In this document: one piece after another, positions 8,363 to 20,420 of the stretch
Layout of the letters: each line of letters opens with the position of its first letter
Numbering within the stretch: the first letter of the stretch is position 1
Sequence record: PZ583742.1
Reading direction: 5' to 3' (one strand)
DNA from: a phage
Length of the DNA stretch: 64,000 nucleotides
The notes under the pieces: model-generated
Told to the model about the DNA's origin: nothing
The model's database searches: none
What the model saw: the letters and a program-made list of their open reading frames with translations, nothing else
Translations under genes and position numbers: made by a program

Positions 8363-11077
8363 ATGCAAGAATTTTATTTAACTATCGAACAAATCGGTGA
8401 CAATCTGCTTGAACGATACATTGACAAGAACGGTCATGAACGTGTTCGTGAAATCCCTTATGCTCCATGCTTGTTTATGCACGCCCGGGAAGGCCAGGCT
8501 GCAAAGTATACAGACATCTATAATAAAGGTTGTGTGAAAAAAGAATTCGATTCCATGCGTGATGCATCCCAGTGGATGAAGCGAATGAATGACATGGGCC
8601 TCGAAGTTATGGGTATGGATGACTTTAAACTCGCATACTTGTCCGACCGTTACCCACACGAAATCAAATATGATTCAAGTAAAATCCGTGTTGCTAACTT
8701 CGATATCGAGGTGACATCTCCTGATGGGTTCCCTGAACCGTCTGAAGCACGTCACCCTATTGATGCCCTGACGCACTATGATTCGGTAGACGATAAATTC
8801 TATGTCTTTGACCTTTTGGGCTCACCATACGCCACTGTGGAGCAATGGTCTATTGATATTGCTGCTAAGCTGCAGGAAGACGGTGGTGATGAAGTCCCTG
8901 AAGAAATCCTGGAAAAAATTGTTTATATGGCTTTCGATTCAGAAGAAGAAATGCTCCAGCAGTATTTGGTATTCTGGAACGAGAAAACTCCGGTTATGTT
9001 AACCGGTTGGAACATCGAGAAGTTTGATATTCCATATATCTACAACCGTCTTAAAAATGTATTTGGTGAAGCTACGGCAAAACGTCTGAGCCCACATCGT
9101 CGTACAAAAGTTAAGGTCATTAACAACGGCTTTGGTGAAGAACAAGAAATCATTCAGATTCTGGGTATCTCTGTTCTGGATTATCTGGACCTGTATAAAA
9201 AGTTCAGCTTCACAAACCAACCGTCTTATTCGTTGGATTATGTTGCGGAATCTGAACTGGGTGTTGGTAAACTCCCGTATGATGGTCCGATTTCTAAACT
9301 GCGTGAATCAAATCACCAGCGGTATATTTCTTATAACATCATCGACGTTTATCGTGTTGTGCAGATTGACCGTAAGCGGCAGTTTATTAACCTGAGTCAG
9401 TCAATGGGTTATTACGCAAAAATGCAGATTCAGTCTGTATTCAGCCCAATCAAAACTTGGGATGCGATTATCTTTAACAGCCTGAAGACTCAAAACAAAG
9501 TCATTCCGGAAACCAAATCGCATGTTCGTCAATCGTTCCCTGGTGCATTTGTTAAGGAACCTATTCCGAACGCGTACAAATATGTGATGAGCTGTGACTT
9601 AACATCTCTGTATCCAAGCATCATCCGACAGATTAATATCAGTCCAGAAACGATTGCCGGTTCATTTGCCCCAGCGCCGATGTATGAATACATCGCAGGA
9701 ACTGCTGACCGTCCATCTGATACATTTAGTTGTGCTCCAAATGGTATGATGTATTTTAAAGATGTTGCGGGTATTATTCCGACAGAAGTCACCAAGGTGT
9801 TTAATCAGCGTAAAGAGCACAAAGGCTATATGCTTGCGGCTCAACGTAATGGTGAACTGATTAAGGAAGCTCTGCGTAATCCAGGAACTGGCACAACCGA
9901 ACCAGAAGTTGATTATCGTCATGACTTTGATGACAATATGAAAACGGCCCTGCATGGTCTGAATCAAACAGTCCTGAATGGTATGTTGTACAAAGCGCAG
10001 ATGGAAGAAGTTGCAGGCATGACCGCACAGATTAACCGTAAACTGCTTATCAACAGTTGTTATGGCGCTCTGGGCAATATCTGGTTCCGTTACTTTGACC
10101 TGCGAAATGCAACCGCGATTACATCTTTCGGACAACTTGCATTGCAGTGGATTGAGCGTAAAGTTAACGAATACTTCGATAGTGTCTGTGGGACAAGCGG
10201 CGAAACTTATGTGTTCTATGGCGATACTGACTCCATTTATATCCAGTGCGATAACCTGATTAAAAAGGTTGGTGGCGAATCTAAATTCCGTGATACAAAC
10301 CACCTGGTTGACTTCATGGACAAGTTTGCGAAAGACCGTCTGGAACCGGCAATCGATAAAGCTTTCCGTGAGCTGGCTGAATACATGAACAACAAACAGC
10401 ACCTTATGTTTATGGACCGTGAAGCGATTGCATGTCCTCCGCTGGGTTCTAAGGGTGTGGGTGGATTCTGGACGGCGAAGAAGCGTTATGCACTGAACGT
10501 GTACGATATGGAAGGCACACGATATGCTGTTCCGAAATTGAAAATCATGGGTCTGGAAACTCAAAAGTCGAGTACTCCAAAGGCATGTCAGAAAGCTCTG
10601 AAAGAATGTATCCGCCGTATGCTGCAAGAAGGTGAAGAATCTCTGCAGACATACTTCAAGGAATTCAATAAGGAATTTAATGAGCTTAACTACATGACCA
10701 TCGCAGGTGTATCATCGGTTAACAACATCCAGAAATATAATGAAGGCGGTTTCCCTGGATTTAAGTGCCCGGCTCATATCAAAGGTGTGCTTGCATATAT
10801 GCGTGCAACTAAAGGTCTGAAGACTGTTCCACAAATCATGGAAGGGGAAAAGGTGTATGTACTTCCTCTTAAAGTCGGTAACCCGTTTGGTGAAACCGTG
10901 ATTGCATGGCCATCTGGGATTGAACTCCCGATTGAAATCCGTGACCAGGTTCTGCAGTGGATGGACTACAACATACTGTTCCAGAAGACTTTTGTTAAGC
11001 CATTAACAGGTTTCTCTGAAGCTGCAAAGGTTGATTACGAAAAGAAAGCAACTCTTTTTGATATGTTTGACTTTTAA
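8363..11077 (+). CDS. 43: DNA polymerase gp43 (family B)
   Basis: Exo motif FDIE, motif A DLTSLYPSII, motif C YGDTDS; 904 aa. Confidence 0.97.
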   Translation: MQEFYLTIEQIGDNLLERYIDKNGHERVREIPYAPCLFMHAREGQAAKYTDIYNKGCVKKEFDSMRDASQWMKRMNDMGLEVMGMDDFKLAYLSDRYPHEIKYDSSKIRVANFDIEVTSPDGFPEPSEARHPIDALTHYDSVDDKFYVFDLLGSPYATVEQWSIDIAAKLQEDGGDEVPEEILEKIVYMAFDSEEEMLQQYLVFWNEKTPVMLTGWNIEKFDIPYIYNRLKNVFGEATAKRLSPHRRTKVKVINNGFGEEQEIIQILGISVLDYLDLYKKFSFTNQPSYSLDYVAESELGVGKLPYDGPISKLRESNHQRYISYNIIDVYRVVQIDRKRQFINLSQSMGYYAKMQIQSVFSPIKTWDAIIFNSLKTQNKVIPETKSHVRQSFPGAFVKEPIPNAYKYVMSCDLTSLYPSIIRQINISPETIAGSFAPAPMYEYIAGTADRPSDTFSCAPNGMMYFKDVAGIIPTEVTKVFNQRKEHKGYMLAAQRNGELIKEALRNPGTGTTEPEVDYRHDFDDNMKTALHGLNQTVLNGMLYKAQMEEVAGMTAQINRKLLINSCYGALGNIWFRYFDLRNATAITSFGQLALQWIERKVNEYFDSVCGTSGETYVFYGDTDSIYIQCDNLIKKVGGESKFRDTNHLVDFMDKFAKDRLEPAIDKAFRELAEYMNNKQHLMFMDREAIACPPLGSKGVGGFWTAKKRYALNVYDMEGTRYAVPKLKIMGLETQKSSTPKACQKALKECIRRMLQEGEESLQTYFKEFNKEFNELNYMTIAGVSSVNNIQKYNEGGFPGFKCPAHIKGVLAYMRATKGLKTVPQIMEGEKVYVLPLKVGNPFGETVIAWPSGIELPIEIRDQVLQWMDYNILFQKTFVKPLTGFSEAAKVDYEKKATLFDMFDF

Positions 11078-13564: not shown

Positions 13565-13898
13565 TATCGATTTATCTGATTTAGATAATTTCGAGAAAGA
13601 TGCGGAGGGAGCTAAGGCTCCTTCTGTACCTTACTACGAAAAAAGTTTGGAGATTATCCGGCAATCCATGGGAACTGTACGACAGGAAATTCTGTTATCA
13701 CTCCCTGATGGGTCCAGTCACATTGTGTACGTAACCGGAATTAAAATTGAACCATCTGGAAAAGTTTCAGTTGATTTCGGCACCCCTTCTGAAGACCGCA
13801 AAGCGGAGCTTGCAGTGCATGTAGAAAAGTGTGTTACAATGCAAATACAAGATGAAATTGATAAGATTAAAATGAAAAAGAGGTGGTGGAAGTGGTAG
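13557..13898 (+). CDS. 40: gp40-like head vertex assembly chaperone
   Basis: 113-aa ORF between uvsX and gene 41, size and position as T4 gene 40. Confidence 0.55.
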   Translation: MNDIDLSDLDNFEKDAEGAKAPSVPYYEKSLEIIRQSMGTVRQEILLSLPDGSSHIVYVTGIKIEPSGKVSVDFGTPSEDRKAELAVHVEKCVTMQIQDEIDKIKMKKRWWKW

Positions 13899-15322
13899 AA
13901 ACTATTTTATCCCAGCTACTCTTTAACAAGGAATATTTTGTTAAAGTCTGGCCATATCTGAATAATACATATTTTGAAAAGGGTCCTGCAAAGACCCTTT
14001 TTAATACGATTAACGAACACGTAAAAGAATATCAAGCGGTACCAACTAAGACTGCACTTGATATCGCGCTCGACAGTTCTGACCTTTCTGAAGTCGAATA
14101 TGAAGGCACAAAGAAACTCTTAGGAGTCCTGGCCGATACTCCAGAAGACCAGGAATGGTTGGTTAAAGAAACCGAGAAGTATGTACAGAAGTCTGCGATG
14201 TTCAATGCCACATCCAGGATTATCGAAATCCAGAGTAATGCCGAACTTCCGAAAGATAAACGTGATAAACGAATCCCGGATATTGGTGCTATCACCGACA
14301 TCATGCGCGATGCATTGTCTATCTGTTTTGACTCTGCTCTGGGCCATGACTGGTTAAACGATTACGAAGCTCGATTCCAGACTTATCTGAACAAATCGAA
14401 GAAGGTTCCGTTCCGTATTAACATCCTGAATAAAATCACAAAGGGTGGGGTTGAGTACGGTACAGAGAACGTTTTACTGGCTGGGACAAACGTCGGCAAA
14501 TCCCTTGGACTTTGTTCGTTAGCGGCTGACTATCTTCAGACTGGTCATAACGTGCTTTATATAAGCATGGAAATGGCTGAAGAAGTATGTGCCAAACGTA
14601 TTGATGCCAACTTGCTGGATGTATCTCTGGATGATATTGATGAAGGTCATGTGTCATGGGCAGAATACAAAAGTAAGATGGAAAAATGGCGCGCAGCCGG
14701 GACTCTTGGGACTCTGAAGATAAAACAATATCCAACTGGTGGTGCTCATGCGGATACCTTCCGTGCATTATTGAATGAATACAAACTGAAACAAGGGTTT
14801 GTGCCGGATGTGATTATTGTTGACTACCTGGCAATCTGTGCAAGCTCAAGATTGAAAACGTTTACCGAAAACAGTTACGGCCTGATTAAAATGGTTGCAG
14901 AAGAACTTCGTGGCCTGGCGGTCGAGAAAAATGTGGTCCTGTGGACTGCAGCACAGACAACCAGGGGCGCGAACGTTGCAGCTGAGATTGATATGGCTGA
15001 CATTGCAGAATCCTTTGGTATTGCTCACACGGCCGATTTTATGTTGGGTGTTGTTGAGACTGAAGAATTCGCTCAAATGGGTCTGCAGTTAATCAAACAG
15101 CTTAAGTCTCGTTATGGTGATAAGAACTACTATAATAAATTCAAGATGGGTGTTAAGAAAGGTAATCAGCGCTGGTATGAGGTTGATGATGATTCGGCTC
15201 CTAAACAAGGCCCTACGGTTAAAGAAGCCACTGGTGAGATGAATCGCCAGGCTGAAATGAATAGACAAACCAGGGTCAACAGGAGCGACCTGGACGACCT
15301 TGCTGCTCAAATGAAATTCTAA
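13892..15322 (+). CDS. 41: replicative DNA helicase gp41 (DnaB-like)
   Basis: Walker A GTNVGKS; MVETILSQLLF aligns with the T4 gp41 N-terminus; GTG start 6 nt after GAGGTGG. Confidence 0.95.
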   Translation: MVETILSQLLFNKEYFVKVWPYLNNTYFEKGPAKTLFNTINEHVKEYQAVPTKTALDIALDSSDLSEVEYEGTKKLLGVLADTPEDQEWLVKETEKYVQKSAMFNATSRIIEIQSNAELPKDKRDKRIPDIGAITDIMRDALSICFDSALGHDWLNDYEARFQTYLNKSKKVPFRINILNKITKGGVEYGTENVLLAGTNVGKSLGLCSLAADYLQTGHNVLYISMEMAEEVCAKRIDANLLDVSLDDIDEGHVSWAEYKSKMEKWRAAGTLGTLKIKQYPTGGAHADTFRALLNEYKLKQGFVPDVIIVDYLAICASSRLKTFTENSYGLIKMVAEELRGLAVEKNVVLWTAAQTTRGANVAAEIDMADIAESFGIAHTADFMLGVVETEEFAQMGLQLIKQLKSRYGDKNYYNKFKMGVKKGNQRWYEVDDDSAPKQGPTVKEATGEMNRQAEMNRQTRVNRSDLDDLAAQMKF

Positions 15323-15350: not shown

Positions 15351-15379
15351 TTTACAACACCATAAAAGGGGTGTACCAT
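15351..15379 (+). promoter_or_regulatory. early sigma70 promoter
   Basis: TTTACA, 17-nt spacer, TACCAT. Confidence 0.5.
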
Positions 15380-15380
15380 T

Positions 15381-15413
15381 ATCCCATCAACTACTGATGA
15401 GGATAATAAAATG
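15381..15413 (+). repeat. conserved 5' leader cassette, copy 1 of 3
   Basis: ATCCCATCAACTACTGATGAGGATAATAAAATG; near-identical copies at 24432-24463 and 28551-28583. Confidence 0.8.
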
Positions 15414-15659
15414 TTATTAGTTAATGTGCATTACCAGTTCAAATCTGAAGAAGCTCTCCAAAAGTATGCTGATATTTGTGAGCATAATAAAAGAACAGCT
15501 GCCATTGTTGGTCTGAAGCCTTTTAAAATTTTGGATTGCACCTTGAACAGAGCAAGGCGCTGGTGTAGTGTTGCCTGTCATGCTTCAGTTGAAGGGAATG
15601 ATTATTTTTTCATTACTTTCAATGCACAAGATTTTCATTTAATTAATGAATTAAAATAG
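15411..15659 (+). CDS. hypothetical protein (82 aa)
   Basis: ORF behind early promoter and conserved leader. Confidence 0.4.
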   Translation: MLLVNVHYQFKSEEALQKYADICEHNKRTAAIVGLKPFKILDCTLNRARRWCSVACHASVEGNDYFFITFNAQDFHLINELK

Positions 15660-15688
15660 TGTACAAGCCCCTTGACTTAGGACATAAT
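15660..15688 (+). promoter_or_regulatory. early sigma70 promoter
   Basis: TGTACA, 17-nt spacer, CATAAT; followed by CCACACTGAGTTAC leader. Confidence 0.55.
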
Positions 15689-16071: not shown

Positions 16072-16109
16072 TTATGTTATAATGACTCTATCAACTACTG
16101 GAGAATAAA

Positions 16110-16427
16110 ATGAAAACCATTGATTGCAAGGCAGAATACAAAGTTTATTATCATGGGTCAAGCTCTAATGCTGGAATCCAAAATATGCTTTGCCCTCCTG
16201 ATGCAACTGGTGTTCTGTCAGAAGTTGGACGTAAGAAAAACCTGAATCGTGTGTTCTTTACTGAAGATATCGGTTTGGCTAAGATTTATGCTGGACGTGC
16301 AGCTCGTTCAGTGGGAGGAGAACCTCGTCTTTATCGTGTAATTGCTCCGGTAGATGTGGTTTGTTTAAATGATACTAAAGGCGCCACGGTTTATCATGCT
16401 GAATGGGCCTTCTGCGAGGAAATCTAA
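16110..16427 (+). CDS. hypothetical protein (105 aa)
   Basis: ORF preceded by TGTTATAAT extended -10 and ATCAACTACTGGAG leader; no confident domain. Confidence 0.4.
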   Translation: MKTIDCKAEYKVYYHGSSSNAGIQNMLCPPDATGVLSEVGRKKNLNRVFFTEDIGLAKIYAGRAARSVGGEPRLYRVIAPVDVVCLNDTKGATVYHAEWAFCEEI

Positions 16428-16430
16428 ATG
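16416..16430 (+). repeat. repeated gene-junction cassette GAGGAAATCTAAATG (copy 1)
   Basis: Identical 15-mer at 16626-16640; each encodes a C-terminal EEI, the stop, and the next start. Confidence 0.7.
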
Positions 16431-16637
16431 GAAGAGTTTGCTAAAGTAGTTTTTATCGGTTGGTTTGAAAATGATAGCATGTTTACCAAAGAAATCCGCA
16501 TGGATATATCAGACAAAGAGCATATCATGTGGGCGACCATGAGTTTTGCTGAAGTAAATAAAGCATTGGTAAAAGCCTTTGTCAACGATGTGAAAGTGTT
16601 TGAATGTGATTGGCGCAACAAGCCTGAGGAAATCTAA
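16428..16637 (+). CDS. dmd: Dmd-like antitoxin (discriminator of mRNA degradation)
   Basis: KVVFIGWFENDSMFTKEI...AEVNKALVKAF matches T4 Dmd as I recall it; lies next to gene 41 as T4 gene 61.5 does. Confidence 0.55.
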   Translation: MEEFAKVVFIGWFENDSMFTKEIRMDISDKEHIMWATMSFAEVNKALVKAFVNDVKVFECDWRNKPEEI

Positions 16638-16877
16638 ATGAATATTACCTTAATGAAACCAACTCCCGGTTCTTTTTGGAACAAATCTTTTGGTAAGCAT
16701 AATATGTTTATCCAACGCACTGTAAGCAACTGGGAACTAGTTCTTTCAGTCGGCCACAACGATTATGAACAAGAATACGTAGAGTTCTTCGATTTTCCTG
16801 TGAAGCCTACTAAGCGTCAGATTCGTCAGACAAAACGTAAATTCCGTAAAATTTATTTGGAAGACGCATTAAAATAG
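16638..16877 (+). CDS. hypothetical basic protein (79 aa)
   Basis: C-terminal PTKRQIRQTKRKFRK motif shared with ORF 18021-18242. Confidence 0.4.
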   Translation: MNITLMKPTPGSFWNKSFGKHNMFIQRTVSNWELVLSVGHNDYEQEYVEFFDFPVKPTKRQIRQTKRKFRKIYLEDALK

Positions 16878-16906
16878 TGTACAACAAAGGGATAATGCAG
16901 TATATT
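16878..16906 (+). promoter_or_regulatory. early promoter with stem-loop
   Basis: TGTACA, 17-nt spacer, TATATT; hairpin GGGATAAT/ATTATCCC spans the -10. Confidence 0.5.
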
Positions 16907-16934
16907 ATCCCTATCAACTACTGAGGAGATTGAA

Positions 16935-17228
16935 ATGAAAAAGTTATTAATCGCAGCAATTCTTACCGTAGCATCATGTGGTACAGCTCCAGTTACTGCT
17001 GGACTTGATAAAGACCTTTGTGAGTGGTCTATGACTGCGGACCAGACTGATGTTGAACATCAGATTTATGCCGATATCATGAATATTACTAAACGTGACC
17101 GCCCAGATATGGTTAAAGAAGTATCTGACCAATTGACTTCTGGTGACGTTATGCAGTATAACTATGTTCTGTATTGCGATGCTTCATTTGACAACAGCAA
17201 GATTGTTCAATGGGTTACAGGTGAATAA
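16935..17228 (+). CDS. secreted/lipoprotein-like protein, spackle-like by position and size
   Basis: 97 aa with signal peptide MKKLLIAAILTVASC; position corresponds to T4 sp (61.3). Confidence 0.4.
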   Translation: MKKLLIAAILTVASCGTAPVTAGLDKDLCEWSMTADQTDVEHQIYADIMNITKRDRPDMVKEVSDQLTSGDVMQYNYVLYCDASFDNSKIVQWVTGE

Positions 17229-17229
17229 A

Positions 17230-17667
17230 ATGATTAACAGAAATTTAGTTATCAAAAAACTTCGTTGTAAAAATCCAAATGCACAAGCATACAGGGCGTT
17301 TTGGAGCGACGACCATCAATACCTGGGTTATTTTCTTGTTGATAGTGATGATAGAATTACGTTTGCTCATAAACTTCTTAACAAAGAATTAAACCATTGG
17401 AAAGAACTTATTGCGGTCAAGTCCAAATTATTTTCTTGCAATACAATGCACCAATTGGTTTATTTTTTCGCTGATGGTATTCCTGACAAGGTTGAGTTTG
17501 ACGGGTTTGAATTTAAAGACATCAACCCTGATAATGAATTGAATGACAGTATTGTTAATATGGGTATCCCTGGCAAGTACATCAAAAACAGTCTTTTGAA
17601 AATTCTGGAAACCCCTGTTTATTCAGTTGACGACCAGATTTTTAATGCTTTCATGAAGCGAGATTAA
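17230..17667 (+). CDS. hypothetical protein (145 aa)
   Basis: ATG with GGTGA upstream; C-terminus SVDDQIFNAFMKRD shared with next ORF. Confidence 0.4.
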   Translation: MINRNLVIKKLRCKNPNAQAYRAFWSDDHQYLGYFLVDSDDRITFAHKLLNKELNHWKELIAVKSKLFSCNTMHQLVYFFADGIPDKVEFDGFEFKDINPDNELNDSIVNMGIPGKYIKNSLLKILETPVYSVDDQIFNAFMKRD

Positions 17668-17671
17668 TATG
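17626..17671 (+). repeat. 46-bp direct repeat, copy 1
   Basis: Matches 17978-18023 with 3 mismatches; spans a gene end, stop and next ATG. Confidence 0.8.
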
Positions 17672-18019
17672 AATGATTACAATTTTCTGAATTTTGAACT
17701 GGCGAGCAATAATGATGGTAATGCTCATTATGAATTCCGCGACCCTCGGTTTAATCAGGCGATTGGTTATATTATCGTTAAAGATGATATTATCATAAAG
17801 GCTCGCTCATTCCTGGTAATGAAAGGACCTTATGAAGATACTCGCGGTTATCCGTTTGATAAAAAGAATGTGCGTGATTGCGCCGCCTGGATAACGGGAA
17901 ATCCCAAAATTGGAGTCATGTTATCTGATGAAGCGAACGACATTTTGAATGGGGTAGGCAAAGCTCAAGAACAGTCTGTCGACGACCAGATTTTTAATGC
18001 CTTCATGAAGCGAGGTTAA
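17669..18019 (+). CDS. hypothetical protein (116 aa)
   Basis: Ends with SVDDQIFNAFMKRG, encoded by the second repeat copy. Confidence 0.4.
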   Translation: MNDYNFLNFELASNNDGNAHYEFRDPRFNQAIGYIIVKDDIIIKARSFLVMKGPYEDTRGYPFDKKNVRDCAAWITGNPKIGVMLSDEANDILNGVGKAQEQSVDDQIFNAFMKRG

Positions 18020-18023
18020 TATG
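17978..18023 (+). repeat. 46-bp direct repeat, copy 2
   Basis: See 17626-17671. Confidence 0.8.
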
Positions 18024-18242
18024 TTTGTTTTGACCCAATTCTCTAAAGCAATATATAGTTACTCTTGTCAATGGGAAGTCTTTATTGACACTCCGTCTCC
18101 CAAGTACGGAGTTTTTGGACGAGTAACTACTCAAGCTTACGTTGCTCGACCAACTAAACGCCAGATTCGTAAACTTAAAAAGGCACATCGTCAACTGATT
18201 AAAAGAAGGGAACAATATGAGTGCAATGTGTACGGGCTCTAA
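18021..18242 (+). CDS. hypothetical basic protein (73 aa)
   Basis: PTKRQIRKLKK motif paralogous to ORF 16638-16877. Confidence 0.4.
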   Translation: MFVLTQFSKAIYSYSCQWEVFIDTPSPKYGVFGRVTTQAYVARPTKRQIRKLKKAHRQLIKRREQYECNVYGL

Positions 18243-18408
18243 GATTTCTGTCTTCCAGATTTTTGAAGAATATGAAATCGTATCGCAAGACCAAGAAGCA
18301 ATCCATGTTATCGCTGATGATGGTGTTACCTGGATTATTCCGTTGTATCATGAAGACACTTATGAAGTGACTGATGCAAATGGTGATAAAGCTATCTTCG
18401 TTGTATAA
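18217..18408 (+). CDS. hypothetical acidic protein (63 aa)
   Basis: ATG with AAGGG upstream. Confidence 0.35.
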   Translation: MSAMCTGSKISVFQIFEEYEIVSQDQEAIHVIADDGVTWIIPLYHEDTYEVTDANGDKAIFVV

Positions 18409-18427: not shown

Positions 18428-18595
18428 ATGAAAACATTCAAAGATTTTATCAACGAAAATATGGTTGCCGGTGATGCGGGTGGAAACCCAACTAATATCG
18501 CAACAGGTACCACTTCCGGGGCAGTTGTCAATAAAGGCCCTGAACAAATCCCATCAAAAAAGCGTAAGAACAAAGACGATAAACCTACAGTATAA
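18428..18595 (+). CDS. small Gly/Thr-rich protein (55 aa) with basic tail
   Basis: ATG after AAAGGGGG; below the 60-aa ORF-track cutoff. Confidence 0.35.
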   Translation: MKTFKDFINENMVAGDAGGNPTNIATGTTSGAVVNKGPEQIPSKKRKNKDDKPTV

Positions 18596-18627: not shown

Positions 18628-19656
18628 ATGTCATATATTGATAAAGAATTTGCAGTCAGAGCTTTATCGTATCAACCACGTTATAGAGAAGTCACCGGGA
18701 GCACATTTAAAGCAAACTGTCGTTGCAAGGTTTGTGGGGACTCCCAGAAAGATTCACACAAGGCTCGATTCTGGGCGTATACTAATCCGACTGATGGCGC
18801 GGTTTACGTGAAATGTTTTAACTGTGACTACTCCACGCATATAAGCAAATACATAAAAGAGTTTGAGCCGGATTTACACCGGGAATATATGGTTGAGAAG
18901 TATAAGGAGAATGCATTTGGGCGACAACGCACTGAAGTTGCAGAAGCTCCGAAAGAACCAGAAAAAACTCCGGTTATTGAGCAGCTTGCTTTTTGTGAAA
19001 GACTCGATACTTTACCAGAAGCACATCCGATAATTAAGTATGTAAAAAGTCGGTGTATTCCGAGCAATGTTTGGAACCGGTTATGGTTTACAAACAAATG
19101 GCCTGCATTAGTTAACTCCGTTAATCCTGGGACGTATAAGAATGAAACGAATGAACCACGCTTGGTTATTCCTATCTTCAACGGCAAAAAAGAAATCGAA
19201 TCTTTCCAAGGACGAGCTCTTCGCAAAGATGCACCACAAAAATATATCACAATCAAAGCTCACCCAGAAGCTTCCAAAGTCTATGGCGTAGACAAGATTG
19301 ATGAGCGTAAACGCGTATGGGTAATGGAAGGTCCAATTGATAGTTTGTTTATCCCTAACAGCATTGCGATAACCGGTGGAACATTAGCATTGGAAGCTGT
19401 TCCTTACCCAGAAACCAGAGTATGGGTGATGGATTCAGAAGCAAGACATCCTGATACGATTAAACGTATGAAGAAATTAGTCGATGCAGGAGAAGCTGTT
19501 ATGTTCTGGGACAACGCACCGTGGCATACGAAAGATATAAATGAAATGATTAAATCGGAAGGAGCAACGCCTGAGCAAATTGAAGCCTATATGAATGATA
19601 ATATTGCACAAGGTTTAATGGCAAAACTTCGATTATCCAAATATGCAAAAATATGA
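18628..19656 (+). CDS. 61: DNA primase gp61
   Basis: Zinc ribbon CRCKVCGDS...CFNCDY; 342 aa; C-terminal LMAKLRLSKYAKI as in T4 gp61. Confidence 0.95.
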   Translation: MSYIDKEFAVRALSYQPRYREVTGSTFKANCRCKVCGDSQKDSHKARFWAYTNPTDGAVYVKCFNCDYSTHISKYIKEFEPDLHREYMVEKYKENAFGRQRTEVAEAPKEPEKTPVIEQLAFCERLDTLPEAHPIIKYVKSRCIPSNVWNRLWFTNKWPALVNSVNPGTYKNETNEPRLVIPIFNGKKEIESFQGRALRKDAPQKYITIKAHPEASKVYGVDKIDERKRVWVMEGPIDSLFIPNSIAITGGTLALEAVPYPETRVWVMDSEARHPDTIKRMKKLVDAGEAVMFWDNAPWHTKDINEMIKSEGATPEQIEAYMNDNIAQGLMAKLRLSKYAKI

Positions 19657-20420
19657 ATTATCTAAAATTATATAATAAATTAATAGACAAAGGCCTCGCA
19701 AGGGGCCTAAACAAAAAGAATATCCCATTTTATACGGAGTCCCATCATATACTACCAAGGTGTTTGGGTGGACCTGACACCGAAGATAATTTGGTATTGT
19801 TATCAGCAAGAGAACATTTTATTGCACATTTGTTACTTTTTAAAATTTATCGACTTTCTAAATTAATGTTTGCTATACACCGGATGTGCGGTGACAAATT
19901 TGATAGCGCAAAATATGAATGGATGCGAAAAGAACATAGTAAAGCCGTTAGTGAACATATGTCAAACTTATGGAGTCAATCCGAGTTTAAAGACAAAATG
20001 TTAATTGCTTTACACAAGCGACATAACGACCACCCTGTGTCTGATAAAACCAAAAGTAAAATAGCTAACTCATTAAAATTGTATTATCAAAATAATCCAG
20101 TTACTGATGAACAACGGCAAAAGAATCGCGATGCACAAATGAGAAGATTTAAAGAAAATCCGCAAACCGAAGAAACGAAAAAGTTGCGGCGAGAAGCATG
20201 CCGAAAGGCAACTGGAACACCGGTTTGTAGATGCGATGAATTTGGTAATATACTTGAAAAGTATAATTCGGGAGCTGAGGCAAAGGAATTATTACAATTG
20301 GCGGGCAATACTCAAAATATATACACAGCTTGTAAAAGAAATAAAAAGACAGGCCGAATGTATAGGTCAAACGGCCATTTTTGGAAGTATCAAGACGAGG
20401 AAGGGATTCCGGTAAAGTAA
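19653..20420 (+). CDS. HNH homing endonuclease with NUMOD-like DNA-binding repeats
   Basis: HNH core ESHHILPRCLGGPDTEDNLVLLSAREHFIAH; basic repeated C-terminal half; ATGA overlap with gene 61 stop. Confidence 0.7.
   Translation: MNYLKLYNKLIDKGLARGLNKKNIPFYTESHHILPRCLGGPDTEDNLVLLSAREHFIAHLLLFKIYRLSKLMFAIHRMCGDKFDSAKYEWMRKEHSKAVSEHMSNLWSQSEFKDKMLIALHKRHNDHPVSDKTKSKIANSLKLYYQNNPVTDEQRQKNRDAQMRRFKENPQTEETKKLRREACRKATGTPVCRCDEFGNILEKYNSGAEAKELLQLAGNTQNIYTACKRNKKTGRMYRSNGHFWKYQDEEGIPVK

Follow-up and report, generated by a model that had tools for sequence, protein, structure and literature searches.

In the window analysed here, a 64-kb stretch of phage DNA (record PZ583742.1), two adjacent open reading frames, ORF-A and ORF-B, end in the same short peptide, which is encoded by a direct repeat. 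We consider it likely that ORF-A and ORF-B are tandem, diverged paralogues of AdfA (anti-DarT factor A, T4 gp61.2) and that the repeat corresponds to the C-terminal motif of this family plus the junction to the next gene, and is also a recombination point. Each copy encodes a near-invariant family motif, hereafter the tail, and a junction comprising a Shine-Dalgarno-like sequence, a stop and the next start, and the presence or absence of ORF-B changes the locus by exactly one repeat period. The window comes from a T4-like coliphage of the genus Gaprivervirus (~95% identity to the Gapriverviruses DK-13, VR20 and SP18).

The direct repeat and the tail it encodes

An earlier, sequence-only reading of this DNA had placed direct repeats at 17626-17671 and 17978-18023, with 3 of 46 positions mismatched, each copy coding for SVDDQIFNAFMKR(D/G), a stop and the next ATG. 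Both the coordinates and the content proved right, with a single base between stop and ATG. Copy 1 reads GTT GAC GAC CAG ATT TTT AAT GCT TTC ATG AAG CGA GAT TAA T ATG, and copy 2 is the same save for GTC, GCC and GGT. By a repeat search of the window, the pair extends to 56 nt with 88% identity and a spacing of 352 nt. Both copies are in frame, at the 3' ends of ORF 17230-17667 and ORF 17669-18019. The features concerned are listed below.

17230..17667, + strand: ORF-A, 145 aa, phrog_8539 (PHROG match E 7e-94), C-terminus ...YSVDDQIFNAFMKRD
17669..18019, + strand: ORF-B, 116 aa, phrog_4122, orthologue of T2 'gp61.2' and equivalent to one AdfA module, C-terminus ...QSVDDQIFNAFMKRG
17623..17678, + strand: repeat copy 1, extended; last 14 codons of ORF-A, TAA, one base, ATG and first bases of ORF-B
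17975..18030, + strand: repeat copy 2, extended; last 14 codons of ORF-B, TAA, one base, ATG and first bases of tifA-like gene 2

The longer C-terminal stretches are ...SVDDQIFNAFMKRD in ORF-A and ...SVDDQIFNAFMKRG in ORF-B. The 34-nt core of the repeat occurs at only 2 sites in the 64-kb window. In 100 shuffles that preserved the dinucleotides it was matched 0 times, and a chance origin was ruled out on this ground. Rfam gave no match at E <= 1 for the repeat or its surroundings, and the repeat, which is coding sequence, contains neither a promoter-like nor a stem-loop site. A 33-nt inverted repeat, I1 (17618-17650 / 18171-18203, 73% complementary), was taken as chance. That the pair arose by a duplication during assembly or sequencing is hardly credible. 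A short direct repeat is present, and nothing more speaks for such an artefact; the copies differ at 3 positions and sit in different intact ORFs. Moreover, the two-tail arrangement recurs in 34 phage records (the window and 33 others) from different laboratories and also in metagenome contigs, and the artefact was rejected because these were sequenced independently.

The bulk of the nucleotide identity between the copies is explained by the identity of the encoded peptide. Over the 13 shared codons, 3 differences were seen where 7.7 were expected under the codon usage of the window (P ~0.018), which leaves a modest surplus of identity beyond coding constraint. DDQIFNAFM has 8 degenerate codons, and 7 of them show synonymous variation among the loci compared. 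The table of tail DNA contains 2 amino-acid changes, both in one contig and one of them in a frameshifted copy, and other database proteins show a few single tail substitutions. Synonymous divergence (pS) and the ratio of nonsynonymous to synonymous divergence (pN/pS) were as follows.

ORF-A: pS tail 0.27, body 0.30; pN/pS tail 0.18, body 0.16
ORF-B: pS tail 0.32, body 0.30; pN/pS tail 0.08, body 0.36
AdfA: pS tail 0.30, body 0.35; pN/pS tail 0.11, body 0.34

The drop of pN/pS in the tail is clear in ORF-B and AdfA and absent in ORF-A, whose body is itself constrained. Since pS is the same in tail and body while the peptide is fixed, the constraint bears on the peptide and not on the DNA, and an extra constraint at the nucleotide level was ruled out. 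The tail peptide is under strong purifying selection across variants, and synonymous sites drift. Thus, of the functional C-terminal tag suggested earlier, selection on the peptide is borne out, and the function is putative.

DDQIFNAFM(N/K)RG closes all the proteins found in the slot after sp (spackle), and the family motif can be written [SA][VI]DDQIFNAFM[NK]RG. Its use as a mark of membership, derived from the present alignments, is unpublished; ORF-A and ORF-B both carry it. T4 AdfA ends in ...VSIDDQIFNAFMNRG, and the tail is also found on both Shfl2 genes, on AdfA of the RB69-like phage PhAPEC2, on T2 'gp61.2', the ORF-B orthologue, and on Dhakavirus ORF-A (...MNRG). The reverse primers used for RB69 adfA encode ...IFNAFMNRG (PMC11257639). 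The A2 variant (143-144 aa) has the tail and shares only its last ~30 residues with ORF-A, and the divergent proteins P0021 (120 aa) and P0014 (125 aa) keep it, P0021 with its tail intact at just 27% identity to ORF-B in the alignment. All tail-bearing genes examined, including those of the ORF-A/ORF-B slot, adjoin the 3' end of sp in the early cluster from gene 41 to gene 61.

To this family the tail appears confined. In a word-indexed search of 5.8 billion proteins, in which any protein sharing tail pentamers would surface, each of the 62 matches listed has a source name, a length or a Pfam label in keeping with the family. HMMER, run exhaustively on 1.84 billion representative proteins, gave 7 clusters only, AdfA P0019 included. 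The back-translated motif was detected in 16 viral and 12 metagenome loci, those read being all T4-like, and was absent from all 185,579 species genomes of bacteria and archaea searched. The tail on other protein families or in bacteria was therefore rejected, none having appeared in the protein, HMMER or species-genome searches. One Logan contig (SRR21291449, L034 3437-3794) contains an A2-type gene followed by an ORF-B-type gene split into overlapping ORFs of 63 and 68 aa, whose tail has drifted (NAFLKRGE) and reads past the usual stop; the copy is probably in decay, or else a frameshift was introduced by sequencing.

Relationship of ORF-A, ORF-B and AdfA

When ORF-A and ORF-B were compared by BLASTP, the tail alone aligned, and they had been described at first as two non-homologous proteins. 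This description was not supported by comparison of profiles by hhalign, carried out with the tails removed and, for three pairs, set against column shuffles.

ORF-A vs ORF-B: P 0.009, score 20.1; shuffles 11.8 +/- 2.2, 0/120 reach the score
ORF-B vs AdfA N-half: P 2e-4, score 28.2; shuffles 10.9 +/- 1.8, 0/60
ORF-B vs AdfA C-half: P 1.6e-3, score 22.6
ORF-A vs AdfA N-half: P 5e-3, score 21.9; shuffles 11.5 +/- 1.9, 0/60
ORF-A vs AdfA C-half: score 17.6
AdfA N-half vs C-half: P 5e-3, score 20.3

The alignment of ORF-A with ORF-B is collinear. A hairpin motif, [YVI]xG[YFG][IF]xV[KD][DN][DN]xI, is common to all modules and takes the form YLGYFLVDSDDRI in ORF-A, AIGYIIVKDDIII in ORF-B, YVGFIMVQNNKI in A2, YVGGLFVKDNKI in one half of AdfA and HLGVIFVIVKDNEI in the other. 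AlphaFold models of ORF-A and ORF-B show the same order of elements, with 4-5 strands, a helix, a strand and a C-terminal helical region that holds the tail; the predicted local distance difference test (pLDDT) of AlphaFold 2 was 81 for ORF-B and 62 for ORF-A, with ~45-58 for the tail in both. In Foldseek searches of BFVD each model retrieved the other family (E ~3e-4), the ORF-B model finding VR25 ORF-A with E 4.5e-4 and the ORF-A model an ORF-B-family protein with E 2.7e-4.

The link of ORF-B to AdfA was also visible in direct searches. The Pfam AdfA profile (PF23813, gathering cut-off 27 bits) gave ORF-B a sub-threshold 19.8 bits (E 5e-4), positions 131-211 at the C-terminal end of the profile aligning with residues 32-116, and the ORF-B orthologue T2 gp61.2 passes the threshold with 32.5 bits; for comparison, T4 AdfA scores 454.9 and P0021 26.1 bits. 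For ORF-A there was no Pfam match, to this profile included, at E <= 0.1. In the search of 1.84 billion proteins, the ORF-B profile reached AdfA P0019 with E 4.4e-8 over profile positions 19-115, and ORF-B is 45-48% identical to its Tequatrovirus homologues over the full length. ORF-A (145 aa) and ORF-B (116 aa) have one module each, and the two-module architecture of AdfA (~210 aa) is found in neither.

Could unrelated ORF-A and ORF-B each have gained the same portable C-terminal tag by recombination at gene ends? Such grafting would agree with the BLASTP result, with the failure of the Pfam AdfA profile to match ORF-A and with the position of crossovers in or beside the tail. It would also agree with the PHROG families of ORF-A, ORF-B and a 210-aa protein, three separate families that cross-match only over the last 16-20 residues. 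We nevertheless find it unlikely, given that the tail-trimmed alignments are collinear and score above all column shuffles, that all modules hold the hairpin motif, that secondary structures follow the same order with reciprocal Foldseek matches, and that none of the searches placed the tail outside this slot and family. ORF-A and ORF-B are probably remote homologues, diverged paralogues of one small superfamily in which AdfA is the two-module member. From these profile comparisons, the case for placing ORF-B in the gp61.2/AdfA superfamily is strong, and that for ORF-A is suggestive.

How the two-module form relates to the single-module genes is a question of history. The ORF-A/ORF-B pair might have arisen when a two-module AdfA was split, or AdfA when an A-like gene fused with a B-like one; the first tail would then come from a duplicated 3' end that gave a stop and a restart. 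AdfA (~210 aa) has internally similar halves (hhalign P 0.005), ORF-A and ORF-B stand next to each other in constant order in the AdfA slot, GF[DE][FI] is common to ORF-A, A2 and the AdfA N-half, and G[YF][ED][LF]P.EEK to A2 and the AdfA C-half. However, a one-to-one correspondence of halves is unsupported because the AdfA N-half beats the C-half as a match for both ORF-B (28.2 vs 22.6) and ORF-A (21.9 vs 17.6), and genomes with ORF-A only, with ORF-B only and with AdfA plus ORF-B all exist. We regard fission or fusion as possible but doubtful. It is compatible with a diverged AdfA family sharing one tail, and bears on its history only.

Gene content of the slot and crossovers at the tail

ORF-A, a single-module gene of Dhakavirus and Gaprivervirus, is carried by 87 phage records, 34 of which also hold ORF-B. 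The slot after sp was found in the following arrangements.

ORF-A alone: Dhakaviruses, VR26
ORF-A + ORF-B: the window and 33 other phage records
AdfA alone: T4, Mosigviruses
AdfA + ORF-B-type gene: Shfl2 and others
ORF-B-type gene alone: T2

Between related genomes these arrangements can differ by exactly one repeat period. VR26 and JS98 are separated from the window by a clean 352-bp insertion or deletion (indel), exactly one repeat period, made up of the ORF-B body and one tail. In the tandem Tequatroviruses, the AdfA tail ends in MNKG and the ORF-B-type tail in MNRG, followed by 61.1. T4, with AdfA alone, carries the MNRG + 61.1 junction, as expected for the product of an exchange between the two tails, and looks like Shfl2 minus one period. 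UGJNEcP3, classified as a Dhakavirus, is a mosaic at this locus, being Dhaka-like at positions 20-583, window-like at 622-991 (the end of ORF-A and the body of ORF-B) and Dhaka-like again from 1015. The right-hand switch lies within the tail of ORF-B; the 3' part of this tail, its stop (TGA) and what follows agree with the single tail of Dhakaviruses that have ORF-A only. In T2 (locus L002 1425-1475), the sequence just past the sp stop, ...TTAGAGGTTAGTATG CAT AGT TCT GAA..., resembles a remnant of the end of an AdfA tail with its junction, which suggests that the AdfA body was deleted there. The annotation of T2 gp61.2 (108 aa) probably misses the first 10 codons.

The one-period indels, the UGJNEcP3 mosaic and the comparison of T4 with Shfl2 support the recombination at a gene-end cassette that was proposed from the sequence, as a consequence of the repeat and not as its purpose. 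No other part of this fast-evolving locus offers identity over any length, and for this reason crossovers and unequal exchanges fall at the tail. In T4, homologies as short as 2-10 bp are known to suffice for recombination in this region (PMC9391042). Between genera, both Gaprivervirus tails have Lys and GAC GAC CAG..TTC, and Dhakavirus ORF-A and the Tequatrovirus ORF-B-type gene have Asn. No signal of ongoing concerted evolution was detected within Gaprivervirus.

One might argue that the DNA itself is the selected element, the 46-bp repeat being a dedicated recombination or regulatory cassette comparable to a promoter-early stem-loop (PeSL) element of T4-type phages, with the peptide incidental. 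The copies are indeed slightly more alike than the peptide requires (P 0.018), the repeat includes a ribosome-binding site, a stop and a start, and the indels and the mosaic junction coincide with it. However, synonymous divergence of the tail equals that of the body, and codons differ across genera under a fixed peptide; the repeat holds no promoter, stem-loop or Rfam match, and tails of the same genome are no closer than those of different genomes. Selection on the DNA is thus very unlikely. As same-genome tails are no closer and tail pS equals body pS, we take recombination at the tail to follow incidentally from conservation of the peptide within a hypervariable locus, and not to be a function for which the DNA is selected.

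Role of the tail, surrounding locus and known systems

AdfA of RB69 binds DarT1 when residue 164 is His (PMC11257639), and the R164H specificity switch lies in a body helix that aligns with ORF-B 65-76. Because this DarT1-binding switch is in the body, we read the bodies as variable modules that would recognise toxins. The ORF-B residue aligned to AdfA 164 is Asp, neither the active His nor the inactive Arg, in a weak alignment. The tail, we propose, would form a flexible helix of amphipathic character, constant across the family, with I at position i, F at i+1, F at i+4 and M at i+5, and would serve a shared function such as docking to a conserved partner or self-association. A bolder idea, about which we are ourselves doubtful, is that the AdfA superfamily forms an anti-defence platform with variable heads and a constant tail, in which the 12-14-residue C-terminal helix docks on one conserved partner. 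The tail would then deliver the diversifying toxin-binding bodies (A, A2, B and AdfA) to a conserved surface of DarT-like toxins or to a replisome component, and homologous recombination in the conserved coding stretch would allow heads to be exchanged or stacked when T-even phages co-infect a cell. The gp43 DNA polymerase of the window (8363-11077) ends in KKATLFDMFDF, presumably an RB69-type sliding-clamp-binding peptide, and its LFDMF has a loose likeness to the tail core IFNAF. The stretch is too short for this likeness to be assessed, and between T4-type and RB69-type phages the tail and the gp43 ends do not vary together; a clamp-binding motif was set aside as a lead only.

Several points weigh against our interpretation. 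Both window genes fall below Pfam AdfA membership, ORF-B by lying under the cut-off and ORF-A by giving no match; the hhalign probabilities are low (5-47%) and the alignments shallow (effective number of sequences, Neff, 1.1-2.6). Confidence in the ORF-A model is low (pLDDT 62), and the shared tail enters into the Foldseek scores. Within Gaprivervirus, tails of ORF-A and ORF-B from the same genome differ by a mean of 1.94 vs 1.89 between genomes, so that gene conversion is no more than a candidate process, and the ORF-B indel could be either an insertion or a deletion. The role given to the tail is pure inference, and this segment has a pLDDT of ~45-58. Moreover, ORF-A, ORF-B and the family members other than AdfA are only candidates for anti-toxin activity, and for T4 no phenotype of the adfA deletion was reported (PMC11257639).

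The genes around the repeat follow each other on the + strand in the order gp41, dmd, DUF7279, sp, ORF-A, ORF-B, DUF7279, 63 aa, 61.1 and gp61.

13883-15322, + strand: gp41 helicase
16428..16637, + strand: dmd homologue (RnlA antitoxin), from its translation, the DK-13 annotation and PMC9391042; marks the anti-toxin island
16638..16877, + strand: tifA-like gene 1 (gp61.4 family, DUF7279), Pfam DUF7279 E 2e-19
16935..17228, + strand: sp (spackle), Pfam T4_Spackle E 1.7e-43
17659-17671, + strand: junction in copy 1, equivalent to that of copy 2, CGA GAT TAA T ATG (GAGA)
18011..18023, + strand: gene junction CGA GGT TAA T ATG; the last two codons hold a Shine-Dalgarno-like GAGG, ~5 nt before the next ATG
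18021..18242, + strand: tifA-like gene 2 (second DUF7279 paralogue), Pfam E 3e-20; its ATG lies inside repeat copy 2
18217..18408, + strand: conserved 63-aa gene, phrog_3249; directly after the tail in RB69-like phages and some Gapriverviruses
18428..18595, + strand: gp61.1 homologue; directly after the tail in T2, T4 and Shfl2
18628..19656, + strand: DNA primase gp61, right-hand anchor of the locus

The invariable left neighbour of all tail-bearing genes is sp, whose stop is joined to ORF-A through TAA A ATG. All three junctions, sp/A, A/B and B/tifA2, are of the form TAA-N-ATG, and no terminator-like site was found on the + strand from sp to gp61; from this we infer that sp, ORF-A, ORF-B and tifA2 would be co-transcribed and translationally coupled. 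Across phages the junction ...GGT TAA T/A ATG precedes four different genes, ORF-B, tifA2, the 63-aa gene and 61.1. The GAGG supplied by the last two codons (CGA/AGA GGT), with the same junction before four genes, accounts for the conservation of the extreme end of the tail.

In T4, the counterpart region was proposed as an "anti-TA island" (TA, toxin-antitoxin), with TifA being gp61.4 and gene 61.2 adfA (Srikant et al. 2022, PMC9391042). There, Dmd inhibits RnlA, TifA (61.4) inhibits ToxN and AdfA (61.2) counters DarT (PMC9391042, PMC11257639). In the window, the two tifA-like paralogues (16638-16877 and 18021-18242) have a PTKRQIR motif and a 21-nt repeat in common. The second is variable among close relatives, being missing in L025, EAWsc9 and ECML-359 through an indel that has AATATG on either side; in VR7 its equivalent is annotated as 61.4.

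Repeated early-promoter-like blocks (...TATAAT/TATATT..TCTATCAACTACTGAGGAG..ATG) stand before three genes, at 15374-15411, 16078-16115 and 16901-16938, and further blocks lie at 15650-15666 and 16868-16884. The block before sp overlaps a 9-bp stem-loop (16888-16912), forming a promoter-plus-stem-loop unit at ~16878-16912 that is separate from the repeat; we take it to resemble the PeSL cassettes of T4-type phages. The gp61.1 homologue (18428-18595) begins with MKTFKDFINE|NMV..., and the T2 version (locus L002 1802-1966) with MKTYKEFIKE. We take this N-terminus to resemble the capsid-targeting sequence of T4 internal proteins (MKTYQEFIAE), including the (L/I)xE prohead-protease site, and by this likeness gp61.1 might be packaged in the capsid and injected. 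Directly after the primase lies a 255-aa ORF (19653-20420), at a position annotated as homing endonuclease in DK-13, and its presence seems variable among relatives. Lastly, ORF-A, ORF-B and their neighbours bear implausible automatic names in PQ341120 (EAWsc9), PP693301 (P8), MW233709 (UPEC01) and MW250787 (UPEC07), such as serine/threonine protein kinase, transcriptional regulator, DUF2528, nucleotidyltransferase, exonuclease and major capsid domain.

Published work already covers the anti-TA island, AdfA and its slot, and the ORF-B-type gene is annotated 'gp61.2' in T2 and VR7; no new kind of system is revealed here. In the literature searched, we found no placement of ORF-A-type genes with AdfA/gp61.2, no near-invariant C-terminal motif as the common denominator of the family and no mention of the tail as a crossover point. 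AdfA is among the few known phage inhibitors of DarT toxins. A short C-terminal helix as the sole invariant part of a fast-diverging family offers a precise element for mutation. The ORF-A- and ORF-B-type genes, at present called hypothetical or misnamed as kinase, regulator or DUF2528, can now be regarded as candidate factors against toxins, perhaps against other variants of DarT or against different toxins. The locus is also a clean natural example of how an anti-defence island changes, with a conserved coding stretch concentrating crossovers and whole genes gained or lost as units.

Among known systems, two gene-edge elements of T4-type phages come to mind. The capsid-targeting sequence of T4 internal proteins is N-terminal and serves capsid targeting and protease cleavage, and PeSLs are non-coding promoter plus stem-loop elements in hyperplastic regions. 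Reportedly, these elements were described by Repoila and colleagues (in 1994) and Arbiol and colleagues (in 2010). Like these, the tail is a short conserved segment at a gene edge, beside hypervariable accessory or anti-defence genes, and a possible crossover point. Unlike them, it is C-terminal and coding, and has no promoter or stem-loop, so that it does not qualify as a PeSL.

The T-even anti-toxin island (dmd, tifA/61.4, adfA/61.2; PMC9391042) is at the same locus and likewise consists of small early genes that neutralise host toxins, with amplification and deletion through short-homology recombination (PMC9391042). The island of the window differs in being expanded, with two tifA-like and two adfA-like genes, and in its homology, ~46 bp of conserved coding sequence vs microhomology of 6-10 bp. 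The T2 'gp61.2' / RB32ORF033c family (phrog_4122) comprises direct ORF-B orthologues of equal length with the same tail, which in many Tequatroviruses stand in tandem after AdfA, with direct repeats ~358 bp apart. There, however, the upstream gene is AdfA and not ORF-A, the downstream gene is 61.1 and not a tifA paralogue, and the tail ends in MNRG and not MKRG. The nearest characterised relative is AdfA itself (T4/RB69 gp61.2, PF23813), which shares with the window genes the slot after sp, the C-terminal DDQIFNAFM(N/K)RG, the Shine-Dalgarno/stop/start junction and the hairpin motif. Pfam does not recognise ORF-A, and anti-DarT activity, known for AdfA, is putative for ORF-A and ORF-B. In AdfA two modules are joined in ~208-216 aa, whereas the window has two single-module genes (145 and 116 aa), each with a tail of its own.

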